Shown: positions 4,224 to 29,413, numbered from the stretch's first letter. The stretch is 32,000 nucleotides of DNA from Nitrosopumilus maritimus SCM1 (GCF_000018465.1 NC_010085.1:1080001-1112000), one strand, 5' to 3'. Notes: generated by a model not told the origin, from the sequence alone. Numbers and translations are program-made.

Positions 4224-4641
4224 AAAAAAGTTCTTTTGCCAATTCTTCTTTTTTGAGAGGGGTGGGTTGTGAAAATAAAACAGGAAAAGTTATGGTAAGC
4301 ATGTCTTGATCAGTATGAGAAATTCGTACTGAATGAAATTTACAGTTTATTTCAGATAATACATCATTCCATTTATCCAAATGAACATTTACCCTAGTAA
4401 CATTTTCATGAACATCTGTAATACTGGTATCCAAATCCTTGTCAAACAATCCAAATTTAACCAAGGGTACCATTACCATCCCTCCTAAGATTTTATCATG
4501 ATTTTTTAGCATAGATGAAATGATTTGTTCAGAGTTTTCTTTAGGGAAAATATCACCATAATCAGGATCAAAGTACCCTACAATCATTTTTTTAGAATCA
4601 TAAATGCGAAAATATTCTTCATCTAACTCTAACTTCCACAA
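4186..4641 (-). CDS. Hypothetical protein (TTG start)
   Basis: 151-aa ORF with no recognisable motifs. It converges on, and overlaps by 38 nt, the 3' end of 3465..4223. Confidence 0.5.
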   Translation of the reverse strand: MWKLELDEEYFRIYDSKKMIVGYFDPDYGDIFPKENSEQIISSMLKNHDKILGGMVMVPLVKFGLFDKDLDTSITDVHENVTRVNVHLDKWNDVLSEINCKFHSVRISHTDQDMLTITFPVLFSQPTPLKKEELAKELFSILDLLQKRDLL

Positions 4642-4731
4642 TCAGGTTCATCATAAATGAAATGATTTTTTTTATATACCATTCCTTGATGTGGAGAAAA
4701 CAATTTAGAATAACCCCAAACAGAGAGGAAT

Positions 4732-15635: not shown

Positions 15636-16172
15636 AATGAAAAACTTTTGAATTAAAGTGTTGTACTTTACGAGCTTATTTATTTTAGCGATCTAGATCA
15701 AATTTAATGAAAACCAAAGATTAGTCAGAAAATATTGCCATCATCATGCCGGAATTTTGAACTTTATTAGACAAAATTAGTTTTTACAATTTTCACATAT
15801 AGCTTCAGAAGTATCTTCATCCAATTGCAAGGAAACTCCTGAAGAATAGTATTTAGAACATAAACCCTTCATGAATTAGATTTAGAAATATCAGATTTGC
15901 CATGCAGGTAAAAAGTTTACTCGATCAATGTAAATGATTTTTCAGTTTTGAAATTATTTGCGTTTTTCGAGATAAAAAATATGTTCAAGGAATTCTTTGA
16001 AGTAATCTGGGAATTGATCTCAGGAAATTGATTCCATTTTTCTCAATTTTTTTAATAAAAATTATGTTAGTAACAAATACAAAAATTAATTTCAGATGAA
16101 CAAAATTCTCAAAGGCCTGGAATTTTTTTAGTACACGAAAAATGTCACAAAATTTTTTCAAATGTGGGGGAT

Positions 16173-16241
16173 AAAAAAACTATGAATGCAGTTAGAATCT
16201 AATCACAACATGAATAACGGATAGACAAACAGTTCATTCAT
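16173..16241 (-). ncRNA. Candidate ~65-nt small RNA driven by orphan promoter module B
   Basis: Module B lies directly upstream. The 5' ATGAATG (16241-16235) pairs with CATTCAT (16188-16182). A T7 run on the minus strand (16179-16173) follows immediately. The only ORF is 12 codons. Confidence 0.22.
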
Positions 16242-16264
16242 AGTTAGTATTGATACCAAGGATT

Positions 16265-16297
16265 GTTATTTTGAAATAACTTTCAAGTTACGGCATG
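16265..16297 (-). promoter_or_regulatory. Promoter module B (orphan): CATGCCGTA-N17-AAATAAC
   Basis: 35 of the core nt match module A with 2 mismatches. It sits just beyond the S-layer terminator. No gene follows. Confidence 0.45.
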
Positions 16298-16339
16298 CTC
16301 GATAGAATAATTGTCCATAACTTTCGTTAAGTGTGATTC

Positions 16340-16355
16340 AAAAAAAAGAAAAAAA
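16340..16355 (-). terminator. Oligo-T terminator (T7-C-T8 on minus strand) after the S-layer gene
   Basis: The plus strand reads A8-G-A7, 22-37 nt downstream of the stop at 16377. Archaeal RNA polymerase terminates at oligo-T tracts. Confidence 0.55.
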
Positions 16356-16376
16356 GGATAGTGTGAACTAGTTTTT

Positions 16377-19300
16377 CTAACTTACGTTGACAGTTGTACT
16401 AACTGGTGGTGATAATGCCGTAGGATTATCAACAGACTCCCAGACGAATGCAGTAGCAGTGTATGTTCCTGCTTCAGTTGGAATCCATGATAAAGCTGGG
16501 CTGAATGATTGACCGCTAGATAGTGAACCTGTAATCCATGCTAGTGAGACGGTAACACCGTTTGCATCCTGAATCTGTACCAAGTATGCAAATGATTGCT
16601 CTCTATCCTGACCATTTGCTAAGTCAGCGCTGATTTGTACCTGTTGGTCAACGGAAACAGAATCTAAGCTGTTACCGAATGCGTCAACGGCTCTCAAGTT
16701 AGCAGCTGGTGCTCTCTCGAGAGGTGGTACTACAGTGCCAATTAGTGAAGTGGCAGTAATATCAAGTTCATCTGCAGTTGTGTATGGATCAGGTAGTGTA
16801 TTGTCCTCATATTCTGCAGTGACTGTGTCACCTTCTGAAACTCTGAGTCTGTGACCAGATGACTCATTATGAACTGTGAAGAACACAGTTCCCTCAAAGA
16901 TTCCGGTTGCCTCATTAGTCTCAGTTAAAGTTAGGTCAATACCTCCGGCATCGGAGTCAGACCACACGTCAACATTAAAGTTGTCGACTGCTTCTGGATC
17001 TAAGTTCATGTCTGGATCAATTACTCTTACAACACCTGTTCCGCTAGCTGGGTAGCTTGCCTCAAGCCATTGGACTTCACCGATGTTCCATCTGATAAGG
17101 GCAGAGCCTACAATTGTCTCATCTTCAGAGAATTCGAAGGAGATAGTAAGTCCGTCATCATCGTCAGTGGCCAAGAGACCATCTGTTGGACCAGTACCAG
17201 AAGTGGTACCTTTTGCATCGCCAGTAGTTCCATCACCATCAGCATCATGGGAAGTAAATCCTGTGAGGATTACTTCACCAGTAAAGATGCCGGTGTCAGT
17301 ACCAGTCTCGACGAGTTTATAGTTGTCAAGATCAAATCCTCTGGTAGAGACCTTAATTGGATCTCTGTCAGATTCGCCGATTTCATCAACTAGGAAACTG
17401 TCAAAGTTGTGATCTGGTGCGACGATAGTAATGTATACTTTGTCAGTCCAAGTGTATACTTTTTGGTCAAGTTCTACAGTTGCTCCGAAGTTTGAAGTGT
17501 AGATTGTCAAGTTGACATCTTCATCTTCATCTCCTACATAATCAGATCCGGATGGACCCCAGTCAGTGTACTCTAGGATGATTTCCTCACCTCTTTCTAA
17601 TCTGTCACCATCAAGTTCTTCAGGAATTTCGATGACAATCTGGAAGATACCAGTAGAGTCACCTGTTTCTCTAAAGTCAGTTGGTTCTGGGTCAAATGCA
17701 GCTGCTGCGCCGGTTACACCTTTGTTACCCATGGTAGTGGTGGCGGCATCAGAGTCCCATTCGATCAAGTCCAAGTCATAGGTCTCAGCACTGTCATTGT
17801 CCAGATCAAAGTCTGGCTCAATGAGTGTTAAGATCATGTCTGAACCGATAATGTATACGGATTTGTCAGATTGTAATACACCGTTTCTTAGGTCAAATGT
17901 TGCAGAATCAGTAACAGTATTTGCATCGCCGGATGCGTCAGCTGGATCAGTGTATTCTACTTGGAGAATATCTCCTTGTAAGATACAGTATTCTTGGCCA
18001 GATGGTGCACCGTCATCAAATCTGTTGGTATCAGCCTTACCAGTAGTACCGTCGGTAGCAGTATAGATGGTGTCATGACTGTTACATTTTGCTGATGCTG
18101 GACCGTCAGTGAATTTAATGTCTAGCTCTAACTCGAAAACACCAGCATCTGGTGCGATTTCAACCATTTCACCGAAACTTCTGATGTTTGAGATGGTTCC
18201 ATTGTTACCACCAACATCAATCTTTCCGGTTCTTTCAGAAGCGCCTGCATAGCCGAGAACTACACTATCAGAACCTCTGATAACAGAGATTTTGAGTGCA
18301 TCATCTTGGTCCATGGTATCTTCACCAGATGGGTTTTCGTCAAAGTCTGGATCGTTAATTCTGACGTGGATAGTTAGATCACCATTTGCCAATTCTTCAG
18401 TGGAATCAATAGTACTAGTGACTCCTGTTGCGTGAATTGGGAATACTGATCTTCCATTTGGAGATGCGTTTGCTGCTGCATTAGATTCTCCTACCGTACC
18501 AAATGGTACTGGATAGACAGTTCTGTCAAGACTAACTGAACCAGTGTGTGCTCTGATACCTGCGGAATCACTAACCTGAATGATTTCACCAGATGCATCT
18601 CTGAAGTCAACATAGTTAACTTCGATATCAAGACCGGTTATGGTTTCAGGAGTAGCATTGTCAGATCTACACCAATCAACTGGGATTTGGAAATCACCAA
18701 CAAAGACACCACTTGCTTTACCTGTTTCAACTAGAGTGAATCCAGTTGCACCAAGACCAGTATCACTACTTGCTTGGTTGTCATCACAGGTACCTTGGGC
18801 AGTCTTCCATACTACATCATTAAAGCTAACATCTAGTAATCTACCGAGTTCACCAAAGCTGAGATCCTGTGTAGTTGCTGAACCAACAACATCAAAGGTA
18901 TCTGCTCCAGTATCAGAGACAACAGTAAAGATGTCAATAAGATCAGAGTCTACGTTAAGATCCAAGTCTTCTACAGTTATTACTACAGTGTCAGCAATCT
19001 TGTAAGAATCAGCATCTAGAGATACAACACCAGAGTGGCTTGGAGCATCTTCTTGGTCAGATACAGGAGTTGTTACACCATCTGCACCCAAGTCATTATA
19101 GTTGACTCTTGGTGCATCCTCGTCAGTAAGATCCTCAATTACGATGAATGTTGGATCATCTGCGATTGGTGTGATACCAGCGAAGGTACCAGCATCCTGT
19201 ATGTTAATTTGGTTAACCATGACATACTCAAGTGAACCTTCAAAGATACTTGTGTTGTCACCTGTCTCTTCAGCTTCAATTCTGATTATTTGGTTTGCAA

Positions 19301-21503
19301 ATCTTTCACCAGATTGTGCACCATCATCAGTGAAACCAAATGAGAAGAAGTCCATGACGATTACTTCTTTGGCGGCGATGTCATCGACACCTGTGAAGTA
19401 CATTGCAAGTCCGACGTTTACGTTATCATCATCATTAGTTGATCCGTAAATAGCATCAGATACTGCATTGGTCAAATCAATGTAATCCTGTGACTCAGTT
19501 GAGTTGCTGACTAACAATATTGCATTGTTTTTGTCAATATTTCTTGTATCGTTGTTAACCCATGGGAGAATATTTCCTGTGGTGTTAAGCAATGCGATAC
19601 TTACTGTATCTGCCCCTAATGATTTCACATCATAGTTAAAGAAGTTAAAACCAATAGTGGTGTTATCTTCATCAACTAGAGTTTCTTTTAGGGTTTTCAT
19701 AGTTGCACTTCCTAAATCAATGATTGCAAAGTCAACATCAAAGTTTGCTGAACTGTTGGCAGTCTGTGCAGAGATTAATCTCTTACTGAATGTATCAACA
19801 GATTCAGTTGAAGTGATGTTGGTTGCACCGGTGAATGCAGTTACGTTGATGTTGAGTGTAAAGTTACCTACTTGACCTGCTGCAGTGTTGTTTATTGCAC
19901 CTGTATCAAAGATACTATCATCACCGTTTGTACCATTGGTAAAGATCAAGCTAGGAGTTCCACCCTCATCAATAGTGAATGGATCACCAGTAGCGAGTGC
20001 TGGAATCAGGGTTACGTCTGGGTTGTTTAGGTCTAAGTCTTCATCTACTCTGCTGTTTTTGTTTTGATCAGCATCAACAATGACTACTGGAATCTCTTCA
20101 CCAGAGGTCCATTCATCATCAACTGGCTGGATATCAATACTAGCAAAGGAGAATCCTACAAGGATAGTTTGAGGTGTTTCATTGTAATCGAGTGATGCAG
20201 AGGTTCCCCTCTTTGCATTATCTGTAATCTTTAGTACTGATGTATCAGATTCATCATAAGTACCAAAGACACCACTGTTTGGACCTTGTTCGGTGATGGT
20301 TACTGGGATGGAACCTACACCTAACTCACCTGTCTCTGCGGAAATACCAAATGCAGATGCATTGTTGGTGTTGGCAGTTGAGTTAAGTTGGGTAAGGATT
20401 GAATCGCCGTTATCCTGAATTGTCACAACTGGTGTGCCAGAGCTTTGTGCATCGACATCTAATTTCAATACACAATTGTCCTCACACATCAAGTTTGGTA
20501 ATGTTGTTCTCAGGGTTAATGCGCTTCCACCTGAAGCACCGTTTTCATCGAACACTTGGTAAAATGTATCAACATTGAAGGATGATGTTGTATTCTTCGT
20601 GTTGGTAGCAAATGTCCAAGAGTCTTCATCAGTTGGATCAATGTTTAACCATAAGTCAGTAATTGTTGCGTGAACTTGTGATACTCTTGGGTATACAGCT
20701 CTATCCAAACTTAATTCGGCAAATTGATCAACAGTGTCAAAAGTAAGTGTTGTTGATTGAACACCACCACCTTTGTTGTACTGTACGACAACGTTACCTG
20801 TTGGGTTTAATTCATAGAGCTGAATGAAAGGCCAGTTAGCACCATTGTTGGTACCGTTCTTTAGACCGATTTGGCCTGCACTGACACTACCAGATACTGC
20901 TACAGGATCTTTGGCTTCTCTTACAACATTGATGGTACCATTAGCAGTAGATGCATCAAGTGTATTTGCTGCACAAGTAGTAGTGATTGCACCACCACTG
21001 TTGCTACCGGTTTGTGTACCGTTACCAGTTGCTGTTGCATTTGCAACAGTAATTGGAACTGCGATACCATCTGTTTCAGTTGTTGAGAATCCCAAGAATG
21101 CTGTACCAGAGGATGCTGCACAGAATACACCAAAGTCCAATCCAGAACCTATTGTTGTAGCAGTAGAGTCTGCAATTTGGGCTTGGTCTCTGTCTGCAAA
21201 GTAACCATACCAGTTACCATCAACTGCTTGAACCATTCTCAGATTTTTGCCGTTGACAGTTACGTCTGGCTCACCTTTTGCCTCATCTGTATCATTGATG
21301 TCACTATCAATTACGACGACCTCAATTACTTGAGGTCCTGACATGTAGTTATCAAACTGTGAGTTTTCTGCGGAAACAAATAGGTTGGCGTTGGCGGCCA
21401 TTGCTTCAGGCATTACACCTGGAATTGCAAAGGTCAGTCCACCGGCAACCATAATTGTCATTAATGTAAGACTAGTTATTTTACGTCCTATTTCGTTGTA
21501 CAT
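16377..21503 (-). CDS. Giant secreted acidic multi-domain protein, probable S-layer protein
   Basis: 1708 aa with signal peptide (LTLMTIMVAGGLTFAIPGVMPEAMA). Very rich in D/E/T/G/S/V, few Cys, repetitive beta-rich segments. Size and composition match what is known of the ~1700-aa acidic Ig-domain S-layer protein of Nitrosopumilus. Confidence 0.75.
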   Translation of the reverse strand: MYNEIGRKITSLTLMTIMVAGGLTFAIPGVMPEAMAANANLFVSAENSQFDNYMSGPQVIEVVVIDSDINDTDEAKGEPDVTVNGKNLRMVQAVDGNWYGYFADRDQAQIADSTATTIGSGLDFGVFCAASSGTAFLGFSTTETDGIAVPITVANATATGNGTQTGSNSGGAITTTCAANTLDASTANGTINVVREAKDPVAVSGSVSAGQIGLKNGTNNGANWPFIQLYELNPTGNVVVQYNKGGGVQSTTLTFDTVDQFAELSLDRAVYPRVSQVHATITDLWLNIDPTDEDSWTFATNTKNTTSSFNVDTFYQVFDENGASGGSALTLRTTLPNLMCEDNCVLKLDVDAQSSGTPVVTIQDNGDSILTQLNSTANTNNASAFGISAETGELGVGSIPVTITEQGPNSGVFGTYDESDTSVLKITDNAKRGTSASLDYNETPQTILVGFSFASIDIQPVDDEWTSGEEIPVVIVDADQNKNSRVDEDLDLNNPDVTLIPALATGDPFTIDEGGTPSLIFTNGTNGDDSIFDTGAINNTAAGQVGNFTLNINVTAFTGATNITSTESVDTFSKRLISAQTANSSANFDVDFAIIDLGSATMKTLKETLVDEDNTTIGFNFFNYDVKSLGADTVSIALLNTTGNILPWVNNDTRNIDKNNAILLVSNSTESQDYIDLTNAVSDAIYGSTNDDDNVNVGLAMYFTGVDDIAAKEVIVMDFFSFGFTDDGAQSGERFANQIIRIEAEETGDNTSIFEGSLEYVMVNQINIQDAGTFAGITPIADDPTFIVIEDLTDEDAPRVNYNDLGADGVTTPVSDQEDAPSHSGVVSLDADSYKIADTVVITVEDLDLNVDSDLIDIFTVVSDTGADTFDVVGSATTQDLSFGELGRLLDVSFNDVVWKTAQGTCDDNQASSDTGLGATGFTLVETGKASGVFVGDFQIPVDWCRSDNATPETITGLDIEVNYVDFRDASGEIIQVSDSAGIRAHTGSVSLDRTVYPVPFGTVGESNAAANASPNGRSVFPIHATGVTSTIDSTEELANGDLTIHVRINDPDFDENPSGEDTMDQDDALKISVIRGSDSVVLGYAGASERTGKIDVGGNNGTISNIRSFGEMVEIAPDAGVFELELDIKFTDGPASAKCNSHDTIYTATDGTTGKADTNRFDDGAPSGQEYCILQGDILQVEYTDPADASGDANTVTDSATFDLRNGVLQSDKSVYIIGSDMILTLIEPDFDLDNDSAETYDLDLIEWDSDAATTTMGNKGVTGAAAAFDPEPTDFRETGDSTGIFQIVIEIPEELDGDRLERGEEIILEYTDWGPSGSDYVGDEDEDVNLTIYTSNFGATVELDQKVYTWTDKVYITIVAPDHNFDSFLVDEIGESDRDPIKVSTRGFDLDNYKLVETGTDTGIFTGEVILTGFTSHDADGDGTTGDAKGTTSGTGPTDGLLATDDDDGLTISFEFSEDETIVGSALIRWNIGEVQWLEASYPASGTGVVRVIDPDMNLDPEAVDNFNVDVWSDSDAGGIDLTLTETNEATGIFEGTVFFTVHNESSGHRLRVSEGDTVTAEYEDNTLPDPYTTADELDITATSLIGTVVPPLERAPAANLRAVDAFGNSLDSVSVDQQVQISADLANGQDREQSFAYLVQIQDANGVTVSLAWITGSLSSGQSFSPALSWIPTEAGTYTATAFVWESVDNPTALSPPVSTTVNVS

Positions 21504-21528
21504 GTTATTGAACTAAACCAAGATGGTT

Positions 21529-21561
21529 GTTATTTTGCAATAACTTTCAAGTTGCGGCATG
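21529..21561 (-). promoter_or_regulatory. Promoter module A: CATGCCGCA-N17-AAATAAC, 32 nt before the S-layer ATG
   Basis: The A/T box is part of the palindrome GTTATT-GCAA-AATAAC. Its position fits a TATA box for a near-leaderless mRNA. Confidence 0.55.
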
Positions 21562-21855
21562 TCCGATAAATTGTGCGTAATTTTGTTTTAATGAACAAAT
21601 TGTTCACATTGTTTATTAATGATTTTTACAATATCTTTGTTCAAGAAATTTATAAAAAATAGATTTTACAGGTTACTTCCATTTTTGGAATATTTCTTGT
21701 AACCATCAAGAAATCAAAACATCCAAATGATGCACTACATGAATTAAAAATTTCAGATACCGCAACCTAGATTTGTCCATTTGAAAGGACATTAAGCAAC
21801 ACAACTAGAGGATCAGTAATAGAACCCACACAGAAAATAAATTGGACAGTCAAAG

Positions 21856-22230
21856 ATGAGAACAACATTGGCTGTAATTTTAGTTGTAGATGATAACACA
21901 GATTTGTTAGGACTGAACACATTCATGCTAAAAAACTTAGATTATGATGTGATTACAGCCACAAATGGCGAGGAGGCAGTTGCAGCATACAAGACAGCAA
22001 GACCTGACATTGTGATCATGGACATCAAGATGCCTAAAATGGATGGTTTTGACGCCTTTTTTAAAATCAAAAAAATGAATCAATCTGCAAAGATCATTCT
22101 AATTTCTGCATATGCCATTGATGAGAAAAAACTCCTCAATGCGCAAAGCATGGGTTTGCTTAATGTCATAAACAAACCATATGAGTTTGATGACATTGAA
22201 AAACTAATCAAAGAACATGTAGGAGACTAG
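21856..22230 (+). CDS. Receiver-only (CheY-like) response regulator RR1
   Basis: Contains VVDD, the phospho-acceptor IVIMDIKMPKMDG, LISAY and INKPYE (conserved Lys). No output domain. Confidence 0.88.
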   Translation: MRTTLAVILVVDDNTDLLGLNTFMLKNLDYDVITATNGEEAVAAYKTARPDIVIMDIKMPKMDGFDAFFKIKKMNQSAKIILISAYAIDEKKLLNAQSMGLLNVINKPYEFDDIEKLIKEHVGD

Positions 22231-22259
22231 GAAATCATTGATTTGATAAAATCAAATCT
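21947..22259. repeat. Left arm of 313-bp mosaic inverted repeat (partner 24998..25310)
   Basis: 21947-22059 (113 nt) is identical to the reverse complement of 25198-25310. 22106-22259 (154 nt) has 1 mismatch against 24998-25151. The central 46 nt are diverged and there are no indels. Confidence 0.9.
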
Positions 22260-23118
22260 TTTTTAGTTTTCTTATGGTTGTAAATCTTGCCTTGTAGAAT
22301 TTTTCAGCTTCGTCTACAAATCCAAAATACCAATCCTTTAGTTCCAAATCTCTCTCAAATATTTTCTTCCATTTTGCAGTGTTAACAGATGACATTTTTT
22401 TTGAACGCAGTTGAGATGGCAGTAAAAATGTAGTGTAATACCAGCAGGATATCTGATCTGCAAGATCACTTTCGCTTATAGTCTCAAAATCATCTTGATA
22501 TTTTACGTTTAGATACGTAAGAATTTCATAAACGGGAAAATTAGAGGCTTTTGATATCTGTATGTTGTCAAGAAAAGTGCCACTTGCCAAAACCTTCAGT
22601 CTGTGTACATCGCTTCCCAGATGAGATTTAAGCGAATTCCACCTGCCAAACACAAATGGCAGAACTTTTGCATATTTTTGTGCCATTATGTCGATCTCTT
22701 TTTCCGTCATGTCCAACACATCCAAACAGTACAAGACGCCATGCAATGATAGTCGGTATAGGTTTGATGCACCCTTGGTATACCGTATTCCGTCGTTTAC
22801 AACCAATCCAATATCTAGCAACCCTGGCGTCTTCTTTCCTCTATCTCTTCTACCTACAAGCATCCTTCTGTATTCCTTTTCCTTTACCCTTACCGCTTCT
22901 GTATCCTCAAATAGCTGTATTTTTGCCATGGACCATGTAGTTAGTGGATCATTTAAAGCAAGAATCTTTAACATTTTTTGTATGTTTTCTTGATGCTTTG
23001 AACTCTTTGATTTTTTATAGGACTTGCTTCCAAACATGCGCAGTGCCGTAGGTCTTGTGTAAAGCTTATACGAATAAAGATTTCCGTAAAAAGCAACGTT
23101 TTCAGAATTATTAGACAT
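22252..23118 (-). CDS. Lineage-specific protein X1, putative winged-helix DNA-binding regulator
   Basis: 288 aa, ~50% identical to 24185..25030. The segment QENIQKMLKILALNDPLTTWSMAKI...EYRRMLVGRRDRGKKTPGLLDIGLV...YRLSLHG has the helix-turn-helix-wing pattern of MarR/PadR-like wHTH. The function is inferred only. Confidence 0.7.
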   Translation of the reverse strand: MSNNSENVAFYGNLYSYKLYTRPTALRMFGSKSYKKSKSSKHQENIQKMLKILALNDPLTTWSMAKIQLFEDTEAVRVKEKEYRRMLVGRRDRGKKTPGLLDIGLVVNDGIRYTKGASNLYRLSLHGVLYCLDVLDMTEKEIDIMAQKYAKVLPFVFGRWNSLKSHLGSDVHRLKVLASGTFLDNIQISKASNFPVYEILTYLNVKYQDDFETISESDLADQISCWYYTTFLLPSQLRSKKMSSVNTAKWKKIFERDLELKDWYFGFVDEAEKFYKARFTTIRKLKKI

Positions 23119-23148
23119 GCCGCACTATGGTAGGTTATCTCCTAATAA
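23116..23148. promoter_or_regulatory. Promoter module E: CATGCCGCA-N17-CTAATAA, overlapping the X1 start codon; likely bidirectional
   Basis: The CAT at 23116-23118 is the X1 start codon on the minus strand. Read on the minus strand the element is TTTTTTATTAG-N17-TGCGGC-ATG, the geometry of a leaderless promoter. Confidence 0.5.
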
Positions 23149-23168
23149 AAAACAAGCTAAGGGAAAAC

Positions 23169-23259
23169 AAAAAAAGACAATGTTAGCCAAGTTATGAATA
23201 TCTTGCATATGTAAACAGCAATATGTACAACCTAGTTTCTCTTGATAGAGAATTTTTTT
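23169..23259 (+). ncRNA. Candidate ~90-nt small RNA between X1 and the PEFG-CTERM gene
   Basis: The A/T box of module E lies 27-30 nt upstream. The 3' end is a hairpin, TTCTCT-tgat-AGAGAA (23237-23252), followed by T7 (23253-23259). Only a 5-codon ORF is inside. Confidence 0.22.
23237..23259 (+). terminator. Hairpin plus T7 terminator-like element
   Basis: 6-bp stem, 4-nt loop, then TTTTTTT. No plus-strand gene lies upstream except the putative module-E transcript. Confidence 0.4.
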
Positions 23260-23283
23260 ATTTCTAACTCTTTATGTGTATAG

Positions 23284-23316
23284 CATACCGCATACACGTA
23301 AACAATTCTCTAATAT
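23284..23316 (+). promoter_or_regulatory. Promoter module F: CATACCGCA-N17-CTAATAT, 27 nt before ATG 23337
   Basis: Same geometry as modules C and D. Preceded by TCTTTATGTGT (23269-23279). Confidence 0.55.
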
Positions 23317-23336
23317 TTTTTGCAATATGGCATGTC

Positions 23337-24188
23337 ATGAAAAACACATCAAAAAAATTACAAAATACCAGTGATCGTATTTTACGCTTTTTTGTTATTA
23401 CTTTTGCAATGTTAGCATGTAGCACACTTGTGGGTCTAAGCAGTGCATATGCAGCAGATGTGCAAGTAACTAAAATTCACCCAATGCCCGTAGAAGATGA
23501 CAAAGTATCAGTTGCATTTACGTTGTGTTCGAATGATGAGTATTTGGAAATGCCAAGAATTACGGTTTCCTCTGATCTTCAGACAAAGATCCTCTCACTA
23601 AAGCACGATTTGAAACCCGGTACATGTATAGGCGGAACTACAATAGCTGAGACATATGACGTATCCACCATAAACACATCCATTGTACCGCAAACGGACA
23701 GTAATTTATACAAACAAGAAACAATCGTAGACCAAAAAATAGTCTCCCAAGGAATGTCCAATGACGGTTATTTGGTAGTCAAACTTATTTCTGAACAACC
23801 ACGTGAGGGAATCTCAATGAAATTCAACCTGGAGTTCCAGGATGTTGCTGGAAACATTGTGGAAAAAATCAATTACGATATAACTGCATTGCAGGATAAC
23901 CACGTAGTATTGAATCTTCAAAACATGCATTCATCATATGGTACGTCTATACTTACTACTGATGAATTGACTTCAGACTCCCCAGTAGAAGTCAACATTA
24001 TGTTGCATGGAATCGGCGTACCGGGCCATGAAGATCAGTGGACAGGGCCAAAAGGAGAGATCATAATGTTTCATGTCGTACCCGAGTTCGGGGCAATCGT
24101 GATGTTGGTTCTCACAGTATCCGTATTGAGCATAATATTGATCTCATCAAAATTCAACACATTAAGGATATCGAACATTCAATCATGA
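23337..24188 (+). CDS. Secreted surface protein with PEFG-CTERM sorting signal (P3)
   Basis: Start moved to the ATG at 23337, because the track start at 23274 lies inside the promoter module. Signal peptide FFVITFAMLACSTLVGLSSAYA. C-terminus VVPEFGAIVMLVLTVSVLSIILISSKF. The stop overlaps the X2 ATG (ATGA). Confidence 0.75.
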   Translation: MKNTSKKLQNTSDRILRFFVITFAMLACSTLVGLSSAYAADVQVTKIHPMPVEDDKVSVAFTLCSNDEYLEMPRITVSSDLQTKILSLKHDLKPGTCIGGTTIAETYDVSTINTSIVPQTDSNLYKQETIVDQKIVSQGMSNDGYLVVKLISEQPREGISMKFNLEFQDVAGNIVEKINYDITALQDNHVVLNLQNMHSSYGTSILTTDELTSDSPVEVNIMLHGIGVPGHEDQWTGPKGEIIMFHVVPEFGAIVMLVLTVSVLSIILISSKFNTLRISNIQS

Positions 24189-25030
24189 ATCAAAACACCC
24201 AGTTTGGTAATCTTCAGTCGTATCTACGTTATACGCAACCTACTGCAAAATACCTCTTTGGCAGCATGTCATTTAGAAAGAAAAAAAGTTCCAAGCACCA
24301 AGAAAATGTCCAAAAAATGTTAGAAGCGCTTGCACTAAATGGTGCATTGACCACTTGGGAGATTGCAAAGTTGTCTCATTCTGATATATCATCTATTAGA
24401 ACCAAGGACAAAGAACTGCGCAGACTTGTTGTTGGGAGAAGGGACAGAGGAAGGAAAACACTTGGCATAATTGATGTTGGACTGGTAATAGCTAATACTG
24501 AAAATTTGGAACTAGACACTTCTAAGAAATACAGGCTGTCATTGCATGGCATATTGTATTGCCTTGACGTGCTTGATTTTAGCAAAAAAGAAATTGATCA
24601 AATGGCCTCAAACTACTCGGACATACTTCCGATGATTTTTGGAAAATGGGATTATCTTAAGTCAATTATTGGCGATGATGTTTATCGCATCAGATTATTG
24701 ACAGGGGGTCTGTTTTTGGATACCGTCCACATTACAAAAATCTCTCAAACTCCTATTTTTGAAATAATAACATACCTTAATGTGAAATATCAGGACTATT
24801 ACGAAAGTATTGATGAAAATGATTTGGCAGACCAGATATCCTATTTGTTCTATGCTGCGCTTTTGGTTCCATTTACTGTAAATGAAAACGATGAAGAAAA
24901 TAAGACTGAGAAATGGAAAAAACTTTTCGAAGAAGATGAAAATTTAAACATTTGGTTTTTTGATTTTATTAAAGAGACGTCCAAATTTTATTCAAACAGA
25001 TTTGATTTTATCAAATCAATGATTCCCTAG
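24185..25030 (+). CDS. Lineage-specific protein X2, putative winged-helix regulator (paralog of X1)
   Basis: Start set at the ATG at 24185 (MNQNTQFGNLQSY...), which aligns with the X1 N-terminus. The track start at 24038 would overlap P3 by 150 nt. 281 aa. Confidence 0.7.
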   Translation: MNQNTQFGNLQSYLRYTQPTAKYLFGSMSFRKKKSSKHQENVQKMLEALALNGALTTWEIAKLSHSDISSIRTKDKELRRLVVGRRDRGRKTLGIIDVGLVIANTENLELDTSKKYRLSLHGILYCLDVLDFSKKEIDQMASNYSDILPMIFGKWDYLKSIIGDDVYRIRLLTGGLFLDTVHITKISQTPIFEIITYLNVKYQDYYESIDENDLADQISYLFYAALLVPFTVNENDEENKTEKWKKLFEEDENLNIWFFDFIKETSKFYSNRFDFIKSMIP

Positions 25031-25310
25031 TCTCCTACATGTTCTTTGATTAGTTTTTCAATGTCATCAAACTCATATGGTTTGTTTATGACATTAAGCA
25101 AACCCATGCTTTGCGCATTGAGGAGTTTTTTCTCATCAATGGCATATGCAGTTATTAGGGTCACTTTACAATCAGAATCAAATTTTTTCATACGGGCAAA
25201 GGCGTCAAAACCATCCATTTTAGGCATCTTGATGTCCATGATCACAATGTCAGGTCTTGCTGTCTTGTATGCTGCAACTGCCTCCTCGCCATTTGTGGCT
25301 GTAATCACAT
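24998..25310. repeat. Right arm of 313-bp mosaic inverted repeat (partner 21947..22259)
   Basis: See the left arm. This arm covers the last 11 codons of X2, the shared CTAG stop overlap and the C-terminal two-thirds of RR2. Confidence 0.9.
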
Positions 25311-25464
25311 TATATCCCATATTGCTGATCGAAAACTTGTTCAACTCCAACAAATCAATGTCATCATCTACCAAAAGAACTGTTTTATCTTCGCCTTCCA
25401 AGACAAGTAAGTTATGACAGGGGCAAATATAACCACTATGAATTTTGAATGTGTTTTGGGACAA
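25027..25464 (-). CDS. Receiver-only (CheY-like) response regulator RR2
   Basis: LLVDDD, IVIMDIKMPKMDG, LITAY and INKPYE. The last 42 aa are identical to RR1. Its start overlaps the kinase gene's 3' end by 29 nt. Confidence 0.85.
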   Translation of the reverse strand: MSQNTFKIHSGYICPCHNLLVLEGEDKTVLLVDDDIDLLELNKFSISNMGYNVITATNGEEAVAAYKTARPDIVIMDIKMPKMDGFDAFARMKKFDSDCKVTLITAYAIDEKKLLNAQSMGLLNVINKPYEFDDIEKLIKEHVGD

Positions 25465-27310
25465 TGATAGAGAAGGTGACAGGGTTGTTTTTCACAGTTA
25501 TCTGCCAGCCATGTTGTTCTATCACATTTTTGCTAATTGCCAAGCCCAAGCCAGTGCCTTTTTGCTTGGTTGTAAAGAGAGGCTTGAATATGTCTTGCAA
25601 AATATCACCAGGTATGGCAGGCCCATCATTTTCAAATTCGATGGTTTTCTGTTTTTTATCATCAATCAGATTGATTTTGATGCGACCTTGTTTTTCTTCA
25701 AATGCCTGAATTGCGTTTAGTATCAAGTTGATAAAGACGATCTCAAGTTTTTCAACATCACATTTCACGGTAAAATCGATGTCAGGTTTCACTATCTCGA
25801 CATTGTTTGGTATGCTTAATGATTCAAAAGAAGAGGTTATTATTTTTTGAATTGAAACTTCGATTAAATTGATTGGTGTGATCCTCACATAGTTTAGAAC
25901 CTCGTCTATCTGATGAGTTATTCTAGATATTGCTCGGTCCATCTTTGGAAAAACAAGTTCTTTTAATTTTGGATCCATGTTGTTTGAGTTTTGTTTGATT
26001 ATGTTTGTAGCAGACTTTATGGATGCAAGTGGGTTTTTAAGATCATGTGCCACGTTTGCAGACAACTCTCCCATTGCAGCAAATCTTTCATTTTTTACTT
26101 TGGCTCTTGTTTCTGCAAGCTCTTTTTCTGTCTCTACTAGATTTTTCAAGTCAACGGACATTTTTTCAAAGGATTTTTCTATGGTTTTGATCTCGCTTAT
26201 CTGATGTTTTTGCAGCTTGACATCAAAATTTCCTTGCGCAATGTTTCTGGCAACATCTACAAGATAACTTAAAGGATTTGTTATTGATCTAGATATCAAA
26301 ATTGAAATGATCAACGCAGAAATCAGACCGATTACAGAAGCAATAATGACTGTCTCTCTGATTTCAGAAAAATCATCTAGCAACTGATGTTCTGCTTGCT
26401 CTATTATGATAGTCCATCCAAACCCTCTGAAATCTTCGAACCCTATTGATGTGGAATAGCTTACCAGGATAGGCTCTCCCAGATTATTTTTTATTTCAAA
26501 TGTATCACGGTTTTTTGATATTTGTGGGAAATACTCTATTGTTTTTTGGATGCTGGAATCTTGTTCGGTTCCAGGATACAATATTTTGCCTGACTCGTCA
26601 ACTAGGAACACACTACGAGTGCCTGTCTGCTGTAAAATCTCATGGTCGTCTACTAGATCAGACAAGATGTCATCAAGACTCAAAGCAACCCTCATCACCC
26701 CTACAAAATTTCCCTCATCATCCACTATGCGCATTCCAAAGGGAATGGAAAACTCTTCATAATTGTCATTATATTCCAATTTGCCAATGTACATCCCGTC
26801 TCTCTTGGTCAATTGCCACCATTCTTCATCGTCTTGCCTATAGTCTGACGTACCGGTACCCAGTGCTATGCTTGCTCCATATTCGTTTGTTATGAATAAT
26901 TCATCTATTATGTTATGGCCAAAAGATTCTTCATAAAAAATAATCAGCTCTGCTAGCTCCTCTGATGCATCCTCCAGGTTCACCTCAGTTAAGAATCGAA
27001 ATTCAGAGTCTGTTGTCTGTTCTTTACTATCCAAAAACTCTTCAATATCAGATATGTTTCTAAACATGTCATTTGATTTCACGATTGAAGAGCGTACTTC
27101 CTCCACCGTAGTTATTGTTTTAAAATCATCAATTCTGTTTTTGATGTATTGATCTATGTCCAAAATCATAGAGTCGGCCAAAGATGTATTGCGCAGTTCT
27201 ACGGATTTACGCAACTCTTGAGAATTTATATCAATTATGACAAATGAAGTGACTGCAAATATTAGAAACAACGCAACAACGTTTATTGTTAAAAGGATAG
27301 ATATCTTCAA
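25436..27310 (-). CDS. Sensor histidine kinase (TM - ~290-aa extracytoplasmic domain - TM - HAMP - HisKA - HATPase_c)
   Basis: TTG start. Two TM helices (aa 5-27 and ~320-342) and a HAMP-like ITNPLSYLVDVARNIAQGNF. H-box SANVAHDLKNPLASI, N-box INLILNAIQA, and G-boxes ENDGPAIP / GTGLGLAISK. Confidence 0.88.
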   Translation of the reverse strand: MKISILLTINVVALFLIFAVTSFVIIDINSQELRKSVELRNTSLADSMILDIDQYIKNRIDDFKTITTVEEVRSSIVKSNDMFRNISDIEEFLDSKEQTTDSEFRFLTEVNLEDASEELAELIIFYEESFGHNIIDELFITNEYGASIALGTGTSDYRQDDEEWWQLTKRDGMYIGKLEYNDNYEEFSIPFGMRIVDDEGNFVGVMRVALSLDDILSDLVDDHEILQQTGTRSVFLVDESGKILYPGTEQDSSIQKTIEYFPQISKNRDTFEIKNNLGEPILVSYSTSIGFEDFRGFGWTIIIEQAEHQLLDDFSEIRETVIIASVIGLISALIISILISRSITNPLSYLVDVARNIAQGNFDVKLQKHQISEIKTIEKSFEKMSVDLKNLVETEKELAETRAKVKNERFAAMGELSANVAHDLKNPLASIKSATNIIKQNSNNMDPKLKELVFPKMDRAISRITHQIDEVLNYVRITPINLIEVSIQKIITSSFESLSIPNNVEIVKPDIDFTVKCDVEKLEIVFINLILNAIQAFEEKQGRIKINLIDDKKQKTIEFENDGPAIPGDILQDIFKPLFTTKQKGTGLGLAISKNVIEQHGWQITVKNNPVTFSIIVPKHIQNS

Positions 27311-27331
27311 CTGAGTTCTTGTATTGTTTTA

Positions 27332-27342
27332 ACACATAAAGA
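27332..27342 (-). promoter_or_regulatory. TCTTTATGTGT box about 30 nt upstream of the kinase TTG start (putative TATA region)
   Basis: The same 11-mer recurs at 23269-23279 (+) and 29213-29223 (-), each time next to a CATACCGCA module. Confidence 0.35.
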
Positions 27343-27378
27343 TTGTTATGTTGCATTATGGTTTTTTACAAACAGAGG

Positions 27379-27411
27379 CATACCGCATTAATTCAAGATA
27401 AGGACTAATAT
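27379..27411 (+). promoter_or_regulatory. Promoter module G: CATACCGCA-N17-CTAATAT, 29 nt before a 20-codon ORF
   Basis: Same geometry as the other modules. It is divergent from the kinase gene. Confidence 0.4.
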
Positions 27412-27701
27412 TATTTCAGACATTCAGAACTATATGCAAGGAAAATTCTGGTTAGATGAACTTTGCAAGATAATTCAGAAAGTCGAAGTTGTTTGACAGC
27501 CCAAGGCACTACCTTCAAAAAAACAATTCTTGCTACCAAAGACATTTTTTATGAAGATGTGCAGTAGTGTCTTGGTCCCCCATCAAATTGTACAACATGT
27601 AAAAAACTAATTTTAGAATATGTGTTCCATGCAATACAAAGAAAGATTTTGACACCCATTATCCCATGCGATGATAGATTTTTAAAAATGCGTTTCAAAG
27701 G

Positions 27702-27734
27702 CATGCCGTACTACGGAAGACTATCAACTAATAA
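27702..27734 (+). promoter_or_regulatory. Promoter module C: CATGCCGTA-N17-CTAATAA, 27 nt before ATG 27755
   Basis: Fixed 17-nt spacing. Contains the palindrome CCGTA-C-TACGG. Confidence 0.55.
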
Positions 27735-27754
27735 TAATTATGACTATGTAAACC

Positions 27755-28102
27755 ATGAAACAAAAAATACTTTTGTTAGCTGCATTGTTTGCTCCTTTGC
27801 TGTTGGTATTTTCAAATATACCTGCAGCTGAAGCGCAACAAAGCACTAACTATGAGCACGATCCAAACATAGAAAAAGTCATTGTTGAAAAACGAGAAGG
27901 AACCGCAGGTTATGCAAATTATCTTGTAAAAATTTGTGCGGATGACAGTTCCATGAAACTCGGAAAGATGATGCTTCATTCAGATTTGGATCAAATACTT
28001 TTGGAGTTCAACAAAAGTCTTGCAAAAGGAGATTGTACCTTTGCAGGAGCAGTGCTCAAAAACAGCAATCTTGACAGTCTTGGTGCTACATTTCTTAATT
28101 AG
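27755..28102 (+). CDS. Small secreted protein P1 with two-Cys module
   Basis: Signal peptide LLLAALFAPLLLVFSNIPAAEA. The mature ~90 aa align without gaps to the N-terminal domain of P3, including both Cys residues. Confidence 0.65.
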   Translation: MKQKILLLAALFAPLLLVFSNIPAAEAQQSTNYEHDPNIEKVIVEKREGTAGYANYLVKICADDSSMKLGKMMLHSDLDQILLEFNKSLAKGDCTFAGAVLKNSNLDSLGATFLN

Positions 28103-28337
28103 CTCCCAAGACTTGATTATTTTTTATCAATCAATGATTCATACTTCAAAGATCGATCATGTATATTGGTAGAATCTGTCAACATATTTTCCATTTTAAA
28201 CATTGCAGAAATTAGTTATGAAATTTGGAAAAAAGTTTCCATACGTTATTCAATGGGATTTCATCACAATACTTGAAGCAGTTTTGTTAAACAAAGCAAT
28301 GAAAGGATATATTTTTTGGTTAAGGGATATAAAAAGA

Positions 28338-28370
28338 CATACCGCATTATGGTAGACTATCAACTAATAA
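28338..28370 (+). promoter_or_regulatory. Promoter module D: CATACCGCA-N17-CTAATAA, 28 nt before ATG 28392
   Basis: Fixed 17-nt spacing. The spacer TTATGGTAGACTATCAA closely resembles those of modules C and E. Confidence 0.55.
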
Positions 28371-28391
28371 CATCATCAGCAAATCCATACA

Positions 28392-28916
28392 ATGACGAAA
28401 AAACAAACAGTCATCATGACAATGCTTCCAGCACTAGCAATGATGCTACTAATTACTCCAACAGTAGAACAATCATATGCCCAGGTGCAAAAATCCACTC
28501 ATCCTGATGTACAAAGACTATCACCCAGTTCATTCGGCATAAAGACTGCGGACAGGGTATGCGGAGACAAGCTGTGTTCTGAAATAAGAGAACCTGTAAT
28601 CAACATAGAAGAAGAAGATACCATTCAAGAAGTCACGGAGGAGTTGGATCATATGCCTGATCTTGACTTGCTTAACATAATCAAATACAGGAAAAATTCT
28701 GTTGATCCAGTTTCTCATGTCTTAATTTACAAGATTACTGGCGGCACATTAAACCTAGCAGACATTGCCATAGAAGCATCATCAGACATTAATGAAGTCA
28801 AATACAACGTAACAGCACTGAGTGCAGAAAAGTCGACCACAAACGTTGTACGCATAATGGCTTTAGACCCAGATTCCATCAATGTACAAGTGGTAGGTTA
28901 CACACTAAAACAATAG
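28392..28916 (+). CDS. Small secreted protein P2
   Basis: Signal peptide VIMTMLPALAMMLLITPTVEQSYA. The C-terminal ~60 aa show weak gapless similarity to the P1/P3 module (KI...SD...). Confidence 0.65.
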   Translation: MTKKQTVIMTMLPALAMMLLITPTVEQSYAQVQKSTHPDVQRLSPSSFGIKTADRVCGDKLCSEIREPVINIEEEDTIQEVTEELDHMPDLDLLNIIKYRKNSVDPVSHVLIYKITGGTLNLADIAIEASSDINEVKYNVTALSAEKSTTNVVRIMALDPDSINVQVVGYTLKQ

Positions 28917-29171
28917 TCCCTGTAAACACCTATTTTTTCTTTTATTATTTTTACAGTGTTTGTTTAGTGAGAAACTAGATTGAATCCCATAATGTTGAGC
29001 CATTTGTTCATAAAGCATTTTCACAATTTCATTATTCTAGGGATTTTTTAGGAATTACCTTCCAATGACCAGGTCCAGCATCAATCACATGTTTCAATAG
29101 TTTCTCAAGTTCAGTATATTTTTTTCCACAAGAACAATAATTCAAGGATTACTTACTGAATTATGCAAAAA

Positions 29172-29202
29172 ATATTAGTATTGTCTGATTGGATGCGGTA
29201 TG
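29172..29202 (-). promoter_or_regulatory. Promoter module H (orphan): CATACCGCA-N15-CTAATAT
   Basis: About 75% identical to module F over ~60 nt, including the upstream TCTTTATGTGTAT and the downstream TTTTTTGCA. Only a 37-codon TTG ORF follows. Confidence 0.4.
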
Positions 29203-29413
29203 CCCATACACATAAAGAATCAGAAGTAAAGATAGTTTCTAACAAGAAAACTAGGATTCAGACTCTAGTTATTCAAAAGGACTGGGGCTTTGGTTTGACT
29301 CTGAGTTCTGCAAATACTTAAGAAAATATTGTCACAAGTTAAGACTTAAAATCAATATTTTTTATAAAATATTTGCAAGGACATAATCAAATAAACTATC
29401 AGATATATCCATG

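Follow-up and report, generated by a model that had tools for sequence, protein, structure and literature searches.

About three quarters of the response regulators of ammonia-oxidizing archaea (AOA) are bare receiver domains, the outputs of which are unknown and which mostly occur outside any conserved gene neighbourhood (PMC5847659). Such receiver-only regulators are typical of Thaumarchaeota (PMC5847659), and the AOA literature that we searched yielded no description of a sequence-specific regulator site or regulon. A locus of Nitrosopumilus maritimus SCM1, lying in the window analyzed here (a single stretch of 32,000 nucleotides), gives this issue a concrete form: two receiver-only regulators and a histidine kinase are found there among eight copies of a short composite element. 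The questions it raises are what this element is, how widely it occurs and which protein might read it.

The composite element and its geometry

The original prediction described eight copies (A to H) of a GC-rich box, separated by a spacer from an A/T box. The coordinates and strands of all eight were confirmed, and the distances from the A/T box to the start codon, given as 32, 30, 27, 28, 27, 29 and 33 nt, proved correct when measured again. In their order along the window the copies are:

16264..16299, minus strand: module B, AGCATGCCGTA-N17-AAATAACA, orphan duplicate of A just 3' of the S-layer gene
21528..21563, minus strand: module A, GACATGCCGCA-N17-AAATAACA, 32 nt to the S-layer ATG (21503)
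23114..23149, plus strand: module E, GACATGCCGCA-N17-CTAATAAA, whose CAT (23116-23118), read on the minus strand, is the start codon of X1
23282..23317, plus strand: module F, AGCATACCGCA-N17-CTAATATT, 27 nt to the P3 ATG (23337)
27377..27412, plus strand: module G, GGCATACCGCA-N17-CTAATATT, divergent from the kinase gene
27700..27735, plus strand: module C, GGCATGCCGTA-N17-CTAATAAT, 27 nt to the P1 ATG (27755)
28336..28371, plus strand: module D, GACATACCGCA-N17-CTAATAAC, 28 nt to the P2 ATG (28392)
29169..29204, minus strand: module H, GGCATACCGCA-N17-AATATTTT (or N15-CTAATA), followed by a 37-codon Cys-containing TTG ORF (29032-29145)

The motif CATRCCGYA has 8 matches in the window against 0.32 expected, a number reached by none of 100 dinucleotide shuffles of the window, and the composite CATRCCGYA-N17-MWAWWA is found 7 times against an expectation of 0.00. 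All eight copies lie in the non-coding DNA, which comprises 14% of the window (P ~1.5e-7); the only one touching an ORF is copy E, via 3 nt of the X1 start codon. Closer duplicates are apparent within the groups A/B, F/H and C/D/E. The A/B duplication spans 42 nt at 90% identity, and downstream of module B there is only a 12-codon ORF (16203-16241) and an ORF-free stretch of 630 nt, while module H duplicates the promoter of F together with 45 nt upstream. Two details of the initial description had to be revised. The conserved box, first given as 9 nt, is indeed present, but its true length is 11 nt (RRCATRCCGYA, which is GGCATRCCGCA in most relatives). The 17-nt spacer stood for seven copies, and H, to which 15 nt had been assigned, can also be placed in the 17-nt register with AATATTTT as its A/T box, because its A/T run is long.

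For comparison we used about 750 kb of DNA from approximately 80 related loci, every one of which was chosen for containing X1. This set contains 206 generalized modules, and in 714 kb CATRCCGCA has 72 matches where 3.8 would be expected. Across genera of the Nitrosopumilaceae, the module takes the form AA-GGCAKRCCRCA-AA (hereinafter box 1), 17 nt, YWAATAAYA. Box 1 is a single, partly palindromic 11-mer; in about 200 instances exactly 17 bp separate its end from the A/T box downstream, and this spacing persists even where a relative carries a different variant of the box and its X1 shows 60% identity. TATA-like pentamers start at an offset of 17-18 after the box in 75 cases and at 19-21 in 40 more, the latter being overlapping readings of one A/T run, whereas no pentamer starts at 8-15. 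At the BRE position, within the 3' half of the spacer, there is a conserved AG-n-TAT(T) block that lies 4-10 nt before the A/T box and in the forms GGTAT/GTTAT is similar to the GGCAT half of box 1. Among the approximately 140 modules with a callable ORF, 103 have a start codon 26-27 nt after the beginning of the A/T box. This distance is in the same range as in the ordinary promoters of the window and matches the geometry of published AOA amo promoters (PMC3379541).

Footprints of orthologous promoters conserve the module alone, and positions that the search pattern left free also carry information; thus, when the promoter of module D is compared with its orthologues in two related loci, L008 and L009, conservation is restricted to the module. 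In these two loci tandem arrays are seen, in which most genes have their own copy. The 17-nt spacing is also conserved at orthologous promoters as had been anticipated, including that of the S-layer orthologue in locus L073, which has the same 32 nt from box to ATG. Start-codon spacing and orientation strongly support the proposal that the copies are probably forward-read promoter modules, with a GC-rich box upstream of the BRE/TATA position. The module is conserved across genera of the Nitrosopumilaceae, points at the gene downstream of it and clusters at the block formed by X1, the receiver and the kinase.

The neighbourhood of X1, receiver and kinase

The genes of the locus in the window are:

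16377..21503, minus strand: S-layer protein gene, 1708 aa, target of module A
21856..22230, plus strand: receiver-only response regulator 1 (Response_reg, E = 2.5e-24)
22252..23118, minus strand: X1, 288 aa, unnamed Nitrosopumilaceae family, candidate reader of box 1
23337..24188, plus strand: P3, PEFG-CTERM secreted protein (TIGR04296, E = 5.5e-11), target of module F
24185..25030, plus strand: X2, paralogue of X1 (52% identity), 3' of P3
25027..25464, minus strand: receiver-only response regulator 2, its gene in inverted repeat with that of regulator 1 (85-98% identical)
25436..27310, minus strand: membrane histidine kinase, dCache-HAMP-HisKA-HATPase
27434..27700, plus strand: decayed remnant of a conserved small Cys-rich gene normally found 3' of the kinase-divergent module
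27755..28102, plus strand: P1, small secreted protein, target of module C
28392..28916, plus strand: P2, small secreted protein, target of module D

There is a 4-nt overlap between X2 and the P3 stop codon, so X2 is probably co-transcribed with P3; its position 3' of this gene therefore places it under module F. No DNA-binding output domain was detected in either response regulator, Response_reg being the only domain in both (124 and ~125-145 aa). DNA binding must thus come from a separate protein.

The proposed tie between the modules and the kinase/receiver/X1 locus agrees with their clustering across the related loci. Within about 3 kb of the X1/receiver/kinase block, the module density is 4-11 per 10 kb on both sides and all copies are oriented away from the block, whereas 99 kb of control DNA has approximately 0.1 per 10 kb; flanks 5-10 kb off, in loci that all contain X1, still have about 1 per 10 kb. 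X1 is the sole protein other than kinase and receiver in every locus of this X1-selected set, and in remote relatives of X1 the kinase is not adjacent. X1 is also the only gene with its start codon inside box 1, an arrangement found in 36 distinct loci, including L008 and L009. The autoregulation of X1 that had been suggested fits this conservation. Module E, when read in reverse, has its A/T box at the TATA position for a putative leaderless X1 mRNA; its forward gene is no longer present in this genome.

A module copy divergent from the kinase is seen in approximately 31 of 35 loci. The type of gene that follows it varies by lineage while box 1 stays: it is a winged-helix gene in L001-L003 (HTH_45, E = 6.5e-11, with a weak EarA-like Pfam hit), a Cys-rich gene in others and a pseudogene in the window. 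In the window, module G had been described as preceding a 20-codon ORF. There is no real gene there; what follows instead is the decayed pseudogene of the conserved small gene, which has stop codons and a frameshift and retains similarity to the homologue in L009 (tblastn E = 1.7e-4).

The targets in the window are the S-layer gene and genes for secreted proteins, one of which, P1, is a conserved member of at least 20 loci. The idea of a cell-envelope regulon is nevertheless too narrow, given that other genera differ: the targets met most often there are small peptides that are not secreted, along with Cys-rich Zn-ribbon-like proteins. Among the S-layer genes, only those beside the X1 locus, in the window and in L073, have the module, and it is absent from those of L084, L087 and L088.

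The candidate reader of box 1

The reading that we favour, and to which we would give an even chance as a whole, is that each copy is a leaderless or near-leaderless promoter at which box 1 is bound by one activating protein, likely X1, which represses its own gene and receives input from the kinase and receiver. Under this model, each copy would constitute a complete promoter for the archaeal transcription machinery, yielding leaderless or near-leaderless transcripts, and box 1 would be the putative binding site of one sequence-specific protein, most likely X1 (plus X2 here). Bound about 20 bp upstream of the BRE, this protein may help recruit TFB/TBP, so that transcription would be activated, an argument made from position only. 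Archaeal activators bind upstream of the BRE/TATA elements and repressors over the transcription start site (TSS) (PMC4158304). At the X1 gene the module would be read backwards, with the TATA box common to X1 and box 1 lying over the transcription and translation start of X1; the same protein would therefore repress X1 and activate the divergent gene. The dCache kinase and the receiver-only regulator would modulate X1 via protein-protein contact.

The winged-helix label originally attached to X1 and X2 found no Pfam or NCBIfam match. Foldseek searches with X1 returned no significant match (the best PDB E-value was 0.37, with weak resemblance to the MukE-MukF complex, MarR and ScpAB), and no relative was recovered when the X1 family profile was compared with PDB sequences. 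Single remote relatives of X1 give weak hits to TrmB (2e-4) and MarR_2 (9e-4), and the superfamily profile gives a weak hit to the tandem winged-helix domain of MAGE (E = 0.003). A model of the isolated domain failed (pLDDT 49.8); the topology in the AF2 model is helix-helix-helix-hairpin. The weak hits converge and make X1 a putative tandem winged-helix protein.

The boxes and X1 also change together. Loci with Asp92 in X1 have G at base 9 of the box (73 boxes) and those with Ala92 have A (115 boxes), apart from approximately 10 exceptions. Residue 92 (Asp/Glu or Ala), which lies within an otherwise invariant GR-x-x-RG loop, has the highest mutual information with this base among the 288 columns (0.907/0.937 bits), although columns 58, 183 and 91 track it almost equally. 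The Ala/CCACA group forms a single monophyletic clade, so that this co-variation amounts to one evolutionary event. Taken with the linkage and the self-overlapping site, the concerted change of base 9 from G to A in over 100 boxes and of residue 92 from Asp to Ala makes X1 a plausible reader of box 1 as judged from sequence comparisons. A fuller proposal, which we advance tentatively and at somewhat below even chances, is that X1 represents a new family of tandem winged-helix transcription factors that would supply the missing DNA-binding output of AOA receiver-only systems, recognizing the 11-bp box at its constant 17 bp from the TATA box, activating a rapidly evolving group of genes for secreted, S-layer, small-peptide and Zn-ribbon proteins and repressing itself via the box in which its start codon lies, with a single loop residue, Asp92/Ala92, setting G/A at box position 9.

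Other readings of the same module have to be weighed against these proposals. With module and orientation unchanged, box 1 might be read by a different factor, X1 being merely one of the regulated genes; we consider this unlikely, albeit worth serious attention. The reader could be a transcription factor from the regulon itself, such as one of the Cys-rich small proteins or the kinase-divergent HTH_45 protein of L001-L003, or else a specialized TFB/TBP paralogue with an accessory factor. In its favour, the DNA-binding fold of X1 is only predicted, with no significant family or structure match, a genuine winged-helix gene is a module target in L001-L003, several targets are Zn-ribbon-like and the L008 array ends with a TFIIB gene; in addition, a spacing held so rigidly at 17 bp points to close contact between the reader and the pre-initiation complex. 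Yet TFB genes are found in only 3 of about 80 loci, and the kinase-divergent gene changes its type between lineages while box 1 persists. X1, on the other hand, is the one protein besides kinase and receiver found in every locus, has the only start codon inside the box and contains the column that co-varies best with base 9. Slightly less likely still is a repressor operator formed by box 1 and the AG-n-TAT block together, at which X1 or another protein would bind both, cover the BRE region and block TFB until the kinase signal brings derepression. Promoters strong by default would suit an S-layer gene, the second block does lie exactly at the expected BRE position and is similar to the GGCAT half of box 1, the position over the X1 start is a repressing one and most characterized archaeal regulators are repressors (PMC4158304). 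However, box 1 ends 17 bp upstream of the TATA box without overlapping the BRE or TATA, known archaeal repressor sites overlap BRE/TATA or TSS while sites upstream of the BRE activate, and the AG-n-TAT block could merely be the BRE of this promoter class.

The original prediction had itself offered an alternative, in which the copies are X1-type leaderless promoters facing the other way (TATA-N17-TRCGGY-ATG), either as fossils of duplication or as bidirectional promoters making antisense or non-coding RNAs. The reverse geometry exactly suits a leaderless start at the ATG and is used by X1 in 36 loci; a TATA centre about 1 nt into the A/T box would put both ATGs approximately 25 nt away, and a distant relative has one TATA box common to divergent genes. 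Nevertheless, a reverse ORF of at least 60 aa is missing in 102 of the 138 modules that contain CAT, about a quarter of all modules (the GGCAGG and GGCACC variants) lack the CAT altogether, and the distance to the forward start codon stays at 26-27 nt. Furthermore, a transcript made in reverse within a tandem array would do no more than run antisense to the 3' end of the gene before it, and modules are polarized away from the X1 block on both sides. This alternative is thus rejected for every copy except that at X1, and overall it is very improbable. Hardly credible at all is a small mobile or selfish (MITE-like) repeat, a short coding motif or a structured RNA. The element is multicopy and locally clustered and some duplicates (A/B, F/H) are recent, but the common part is only about 36 nt, terminal inverted repeats and target duplications are absent, and a fixed distance before the start codon is kept throughout. 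The non-coding nature of the module, as first claimed, is borne out by the absence of 3-nt periodicity and by ATA replacing ATG in the putative frame of many copies. Rfam covariance models gave no match at gathering score, nor was any tRNA or tmRNA found.

Known regulators and the place of the module in AOA

The favoured arrangement, with X1 as activator, has parallels in characterized systems. Ptr2 of Methanocaldococcus jannaschii, TFB-RF1 (PF1088) of Pyrococcus furiosus and TrmBL1/Tgr with its TGM all have, like box 1, a sequence-specific site upstream of the BRE/TATA, and recruit TBP or TFB by the mechanism proposed for box 1. Unlike those sites, the module keeps a strict 17 bp to the TATA box at about 200 sites in several genera and is linked to a two-component system. 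The TGM (TATCAC-N5-GTGATA) is unrelated in sequence to GGCAKRCCRCA, and X1 falls outside the Lrp, TrmB and TFB-RF1 families by Pfam. EarA, the small winged-helix activator of the euryarchaeal archaellum, recognizes a short consensus upstream of the BRE in the fla operon promoter. The likeness to the proposed X1 system lies in a site just upstream of the BRE, in the regulation of a cell-surface structure and in the weakly EarA-like gene driven by the module in L001-L003; however, EarA serves one operon and the module many promoters, and X1, with 288 aa, is not of the EarA family. Dual regulation by position is known from TrmBL1/Tgr, where a site over the TSS represses (PMC4158304).

Bacterial PhoB/OmpR regulons (e.g. 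pho boxes) combine, as the proposed system would, a box whose distance from the core promoter (the -10 element) is fixed with two-component control of envelope or secreted-protein genes and autoregulation of the genes of the two-component system. In contrast to their DNA-binding response regulators and direct-repeat boxes, the present system has a receiver-only regulator, a single 11-mer and an archaeal TATA/BRE core. Archaeal two-component systems with transcriptional output include FilI/FilR1/FilR2 of Methanosaeta harundinacea and LtrK/LtrR of Methanococcoides burtonii (PMC5847659). FilR2 is a receiver-only protein beside a DNA-binding partner, as proposed here; in the Fil and Ltr systems, however, the DNA-binding protein carries a receiver domain (wHTH-REC). 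X1 has none, so the phosphorylation signal would cross a protein-protein interface.

AOA are among the most abundant microbes of the ocean, and in one of their lineages the gene for the S-layer, the main cell-surface protein, has been drawn into a signal-linked promoter class. The module supplies a conserved cis-element with a position weight matrix and fixed geometry, a conserved kinase/receiver/X1 neighbourhood and a candidate for the DNA-binding partner that can be falsified at the level of one residue and one base pair. It thereby offers a first testable handle on possible transcriptional control by AOA signalling systems that lack DNA-binding domains.

A promoter element with a fixed spacer

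The module consists of an 11-nt GC-rich box of the GGCAKRCCRCA type (box 1), a 17-nt spacer and an A/T (TATA) box. Its copies in the window are denoted as follows:
A, the module of the S-layer gene
C, D and F, the modules of the secreted-protein genes P1, P2 and P3, respectively
E, overlapping the start codon of the gene for X1, a 288-aa protein
G, divergent from the kinase gene
B and H, orphan copies

The original prediction had reported eight copies in the window, and both their positions and the distances from A/T box to start codon proved to be correct. CATRCCGYA has 8 matches against 0.32 expected, a number reached in 0 of 100 shuffles, and the composite of CATRCCGYA, 17-nt spacer and A/T hexamer has 7 against 0.00 expected. 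All eight copies lie in non-coding DNA, which comprises 14% of the window, and the only contact with an ORF is at E, where 3 bases coincide with the X1 start codon. The 9-nt box recognized earlier is conserved, but its true length is 11 nt, with two purines preceding the CAT in an oriented alignment. Closer duplicates among the copies are A/B, F/H and C/D/E. Coding, RNA and mobile-element readings of the module were all rejected. The orphan copies B and H are followed by no sequence conserved in other loci. Downstream of B, 630 nt of AT-rich sequence without an ORF (15636-16265) separate the S-layer gene from a peptidyl-tRNA-hydrolase-like gene. Apart from the module, this stretch has no similarity to the fetched loci; it could have been left by the deletion of a second S-layer paralogue, or specify a non-coding RNA transcribed from B.

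A contig scan with X1 alone recovered three relatives of 60% identity, and a metagenome scan with an alignment of the X1 family recovered 72 more loci. The closest available X1 relatives, from the metagenome contigs L008 and L009 (86% and 83% identity), are accompanied by 8 and 9 exact copies of CATRCCGCA-N17-CTAATA, respectively. Most of these precede successive genes of a tandem array divergent from X1; others are found on the far side of the kinase, and one overlaps the X1 ATG as in the window. The exact 9-mer seemed absent from the ~60%-identity relatives, but non-conservation was ruled out by the generalized box GGYAMCCCGCA with the same N17: these relatives carry GGTACCCCGCA, GGCAACCCGCC or GGCACCCCGCA, then exactly 17 nt, then TTATAAAA-type boxes. 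Conservation of the 17-nt spacing was borne out in L008, L009 and the ~60%-identity relatives alike. Many lineages have CCACA in place of CCGCA.

Across all sequence gathered (714 kb), CATRCCGCA occurs 72 times versus 3.8 expected from composition. The TATA-like pentamer that follows has an offset of 17-18 in 75 cases and of 19-21 in 40 more, which are overlapping reads of the same A/T run; offsets of 8-15 are not represented. The generalized pattern identified 206 modules in the loci gathered, and a logo of 182 distinct instances contains information at positions that the search pattern left free, namely AA on either side of the box, T and G/A (positions 4-5), an AG-n-TAT(T) block spanning +18 to +24, and C (+27). 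In alignments of orthologous promoters conservation is limited to the module. In the literature searched, we found neither a description of the motif nor TSS maps for AOA. The module is very probably real, ancient within the Nitrosopumilaceae and a promoter element.

Orientation of the module and architecture of its locus

In the 206-module set, the first base of the A/T box lies 26 nt from the start codon in 56 cases and 27 nt in 47. Copies upstream of X1 are on the opposite strand and those beyond the kinase on the same strand, so that all point away. This fixed distance, the tandem arrays and the polarity of the copies argue for a forward reading, with box 1 upstream and the gene downstream. 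Ordinary promoters of the window have A/T boxes 27-33 nt ahead of start codons, and for every AOA in their comparison Bartossek et al. located TATA/BRE elements 23-24 nt ahead of the start codons of amoA and amoC, from which they inferred that transcription and translation start at the same point (PMC3379541). A reverse or bidirectional reading, also entertained in the original prediction, applies at X1, whose start codon is the CAT of box 1 in 36 distinct loci (TGYGGC-ATG-CC, Met-Pro), but not elsewhere, as a reverse ORF is missing from 102 of the 138 modules with a CAT, and a quarter of all modules are without the CAT. Assuming a TBP site centred ~1 base into the A/T box, the forward ATG and the X1 ATG are each ~25 nt away, and one TATA box would therefore serve two divergent leaderless genes. 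The same compact layout is seen in a distant X1 relative. An apparent further single-TATA bidirectional promoter, unrelated to the module, lies at 4642-4731 in the window, where a single TTTTTTTTATATACC / GGTATATAAAAAAAA region is common to the divergent genes 4186-4641(-) and 4732-5529(+). Some loci have back-to-back modules with inverted box 1 elements ~13 bp apart (L033 9100/9115, L041 4182/4196, L049 6588/6602, L058 9105/9119), driving a small peptide on one side and a ~195-aa secreted protein on the other.

The proposed tie between the modules and the kinase/receiver/X1 locus is upheld by their density. Per 10 kb there are 4-6.5 modules over the 3 kb upstream of X1, 10.9 immediately beyond the kinase and ~1 at a distance of 5-10 kb, against ~0.1 in 99 kb of X1-free control DNA, which yielded a single weak match. 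About 31 of 35 loci have a module at the kinase-divergent position, which in the window is that of copy G. The kinase is a 624-aa dCache-HAMP-HisKA-HATPase protein with an extracytoplasmic dCache domain, and both short genes encode receiver-only response regulators. In the window the locus is an inverted duplication, with receiver-X1 on one side and X2 (an X1 paralogue), receiver and kinase on the other. The receiver genes themselves form an inverted repeat (21886-22263 and 24994-25371; 165 nt at 98%, 189 nt at 85%), which points to a recent inverted duplication of receiver plus X; the relatives in L008 and L009 have a single X1/receiver/kinase set.

Genes behind the module

P3 contains a PEFG-CTERM sorting domain. 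P1 is a conserved member of the locus, usually found behind a small Cys-rich gene in an operon under the kinase-divergent copy; in the window only a pseudogene remains of the Cys-rich gene, and P1 is preceded by a module of its own, C. Near the S-layer gene, 13614-15215 encodes a 533-aa secreted beta-propeller protein (Vgb_lyase/SGL-like, with a signal peptide) but has no module, so that secretion by itself is not what marks a gene as a member of the set.

Other recurrent targets are 40-70-aa peptides with the motif QPxPxxxLVExxPVKEGxKL, two Zn-ribbon-like families and ~195-aa secreted proteins, and none of these has a Pfam family. The peptides are the commonest targets outside the clade of the window (L015, L030, L033, L038, L041, L049, L058 and others; for instance, minus-strand at 9100 in L033 and plus-strand at 161 in L038). 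They combine the above motif at the N-terminus with a C-terminal C-A-x-D-x-x-GLSW followed by an acidic tail, lack a signal peptide and often occur in several copies per locus; related 59-60-aa genes are present in L008 and L009. Given the adjoining sensor kinase, a role in signalling or as precursors is conceivable. One Zn-ribbon-like family comprises 64-79-aa proteins starting with MPDE(S/H)CRxCGG and bearing several CxxC pairs (L001-L003, L029-L031, L064, L065, L072; e.g. the minus-strand module at 8377 in L029), and a second Cys-rich family, of 70-80 aa, is usually divergent from X1; neither occurs in the window. In the lineage with GGCACCCCGCA boxes, the kinase-divergent position is occupied by a 95-aa winged-helix protein (L002 13211-13498, with an equivalent in L003; Pfam HTH_45, E = 6.5e-11, with weak EarA-like and MarR matches), whereas in other lineages it is occupied by a Cys-rich protein.

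Conservation of the spacing at orthologous S-layer promoters, a check asked for in the original prediction, was seen in part. In L073, where the S-layer orthologue directly adjoins X1, the promoter reads GGCATGCCGCA-N17-AAATAACA, with the same 32 nt to the ATG as in copy A. Where the orthologue is situated in another part of the genome (L084, L088, L087), its promoter is of an ordinary CTTAAATA type without box 1. The S-layer gene is thus equipped with the module only if it adjoins the X1 locus. A second element, the inverted repeat TG(A/G)ACA-ATT-TGT(T/C)CA, occurs independently of the module upstream of every S-layer orthologue seen: in the window at 21592-21606 (minus-strand reading TGAACAATTTGTTCA), 28 nt upstream of box 1; in L084 and L088, 5 nt upstream of the TATA box of the ordinary CTTAAATA type; and also in L073. 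A separate, S-layer-specific regulator probably binds there.

Candidate reader and proposed mode of action

X1 is the sole protein besides the kinase and receiver found in every locus, and the sole one with its start codon inside box 1. Among all 288 X1 columns, residue 92, within an otherwise invariant GR-x-x-RG loop behind the third helix, has the highest mutual information with box base 9: with Asp or Glu at this residue the base is G in 76 boxes and A in 5, whereas with Ala, 115 boxes carry A and 2 carry G. In chemical terms, contacts of an acidic residue with the cytosine of a G:C pair, and of alanine with a thymine methyl, would make sense. The tree places this change as a single event in one clade, which renders the covariation suggestive only; nevertheless, a concerted change of over 100 sites calls for one trans-acting reader with shifted specificity. 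X1 is the best candidate for this role, with a chance slightly better than even. A TFB paralogue as a local feature was rejected, TFB genes being present in only 3 of ~80 loci.

The 'wHTH' label originally attached to X1 and X2 was a guess, as neither matches a Pfam or NCBIfam family. The full-length X1 model (pLDDT 75.5, pTM 0.78) has a helix-helix-helix-hairpin N-terminal half, and the AlphaFold model of the N-terminal domain alone was unusable (pLDDT 49.8). Foldseek against PDB returned nothing significant (weak matches to the MukE-MukF complex, MarR and ScpAB), and the only matches of the family profile among PDB sequences, to the anthrax receptor, were spurious. Single remote X1 relatives have weak TrmB and MarR matches, and the superfamily profile retrieves the MAGE tandem winged-helix domain at E = 0.003. 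These remote relatives are not kinase-linked, and the two-component link is thus not generalizable beyond the Nitrosopumilaceae subfamily.

An established positional rule for archaeal regulators assigns activation to sites upstream of BRE/TATA and repression to sites that cover the TSS (PMC4158304). By this rule, box 1 would activate the forward genes and repress X1; X2, which follows P3 under module F, would be positively controlled. A repressor that binds box 1 and the AG-n-TAT block together and occludes the BRE would draw on the conservation of that block, and we regard it as the less likely alternative; activation rather than repression by box 1 is the reading we favour, with reasonable though far from full confidence. 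Contact between the receiver and X1 would be the simplest join of the kinase and receiver to box 1, a step that is purely our inference.

The module would work like known archaeal upstream activator sites, from which it differs in its sequence, its strictly fixed spacing, its candidate reader and its link to a receiver-only two-component system. According to Galperin et al., ~75% of thaumarchaeal response regulators are bare receivers, most of them without a conserved neighbourhood that would hint at their function (PMC5847659).
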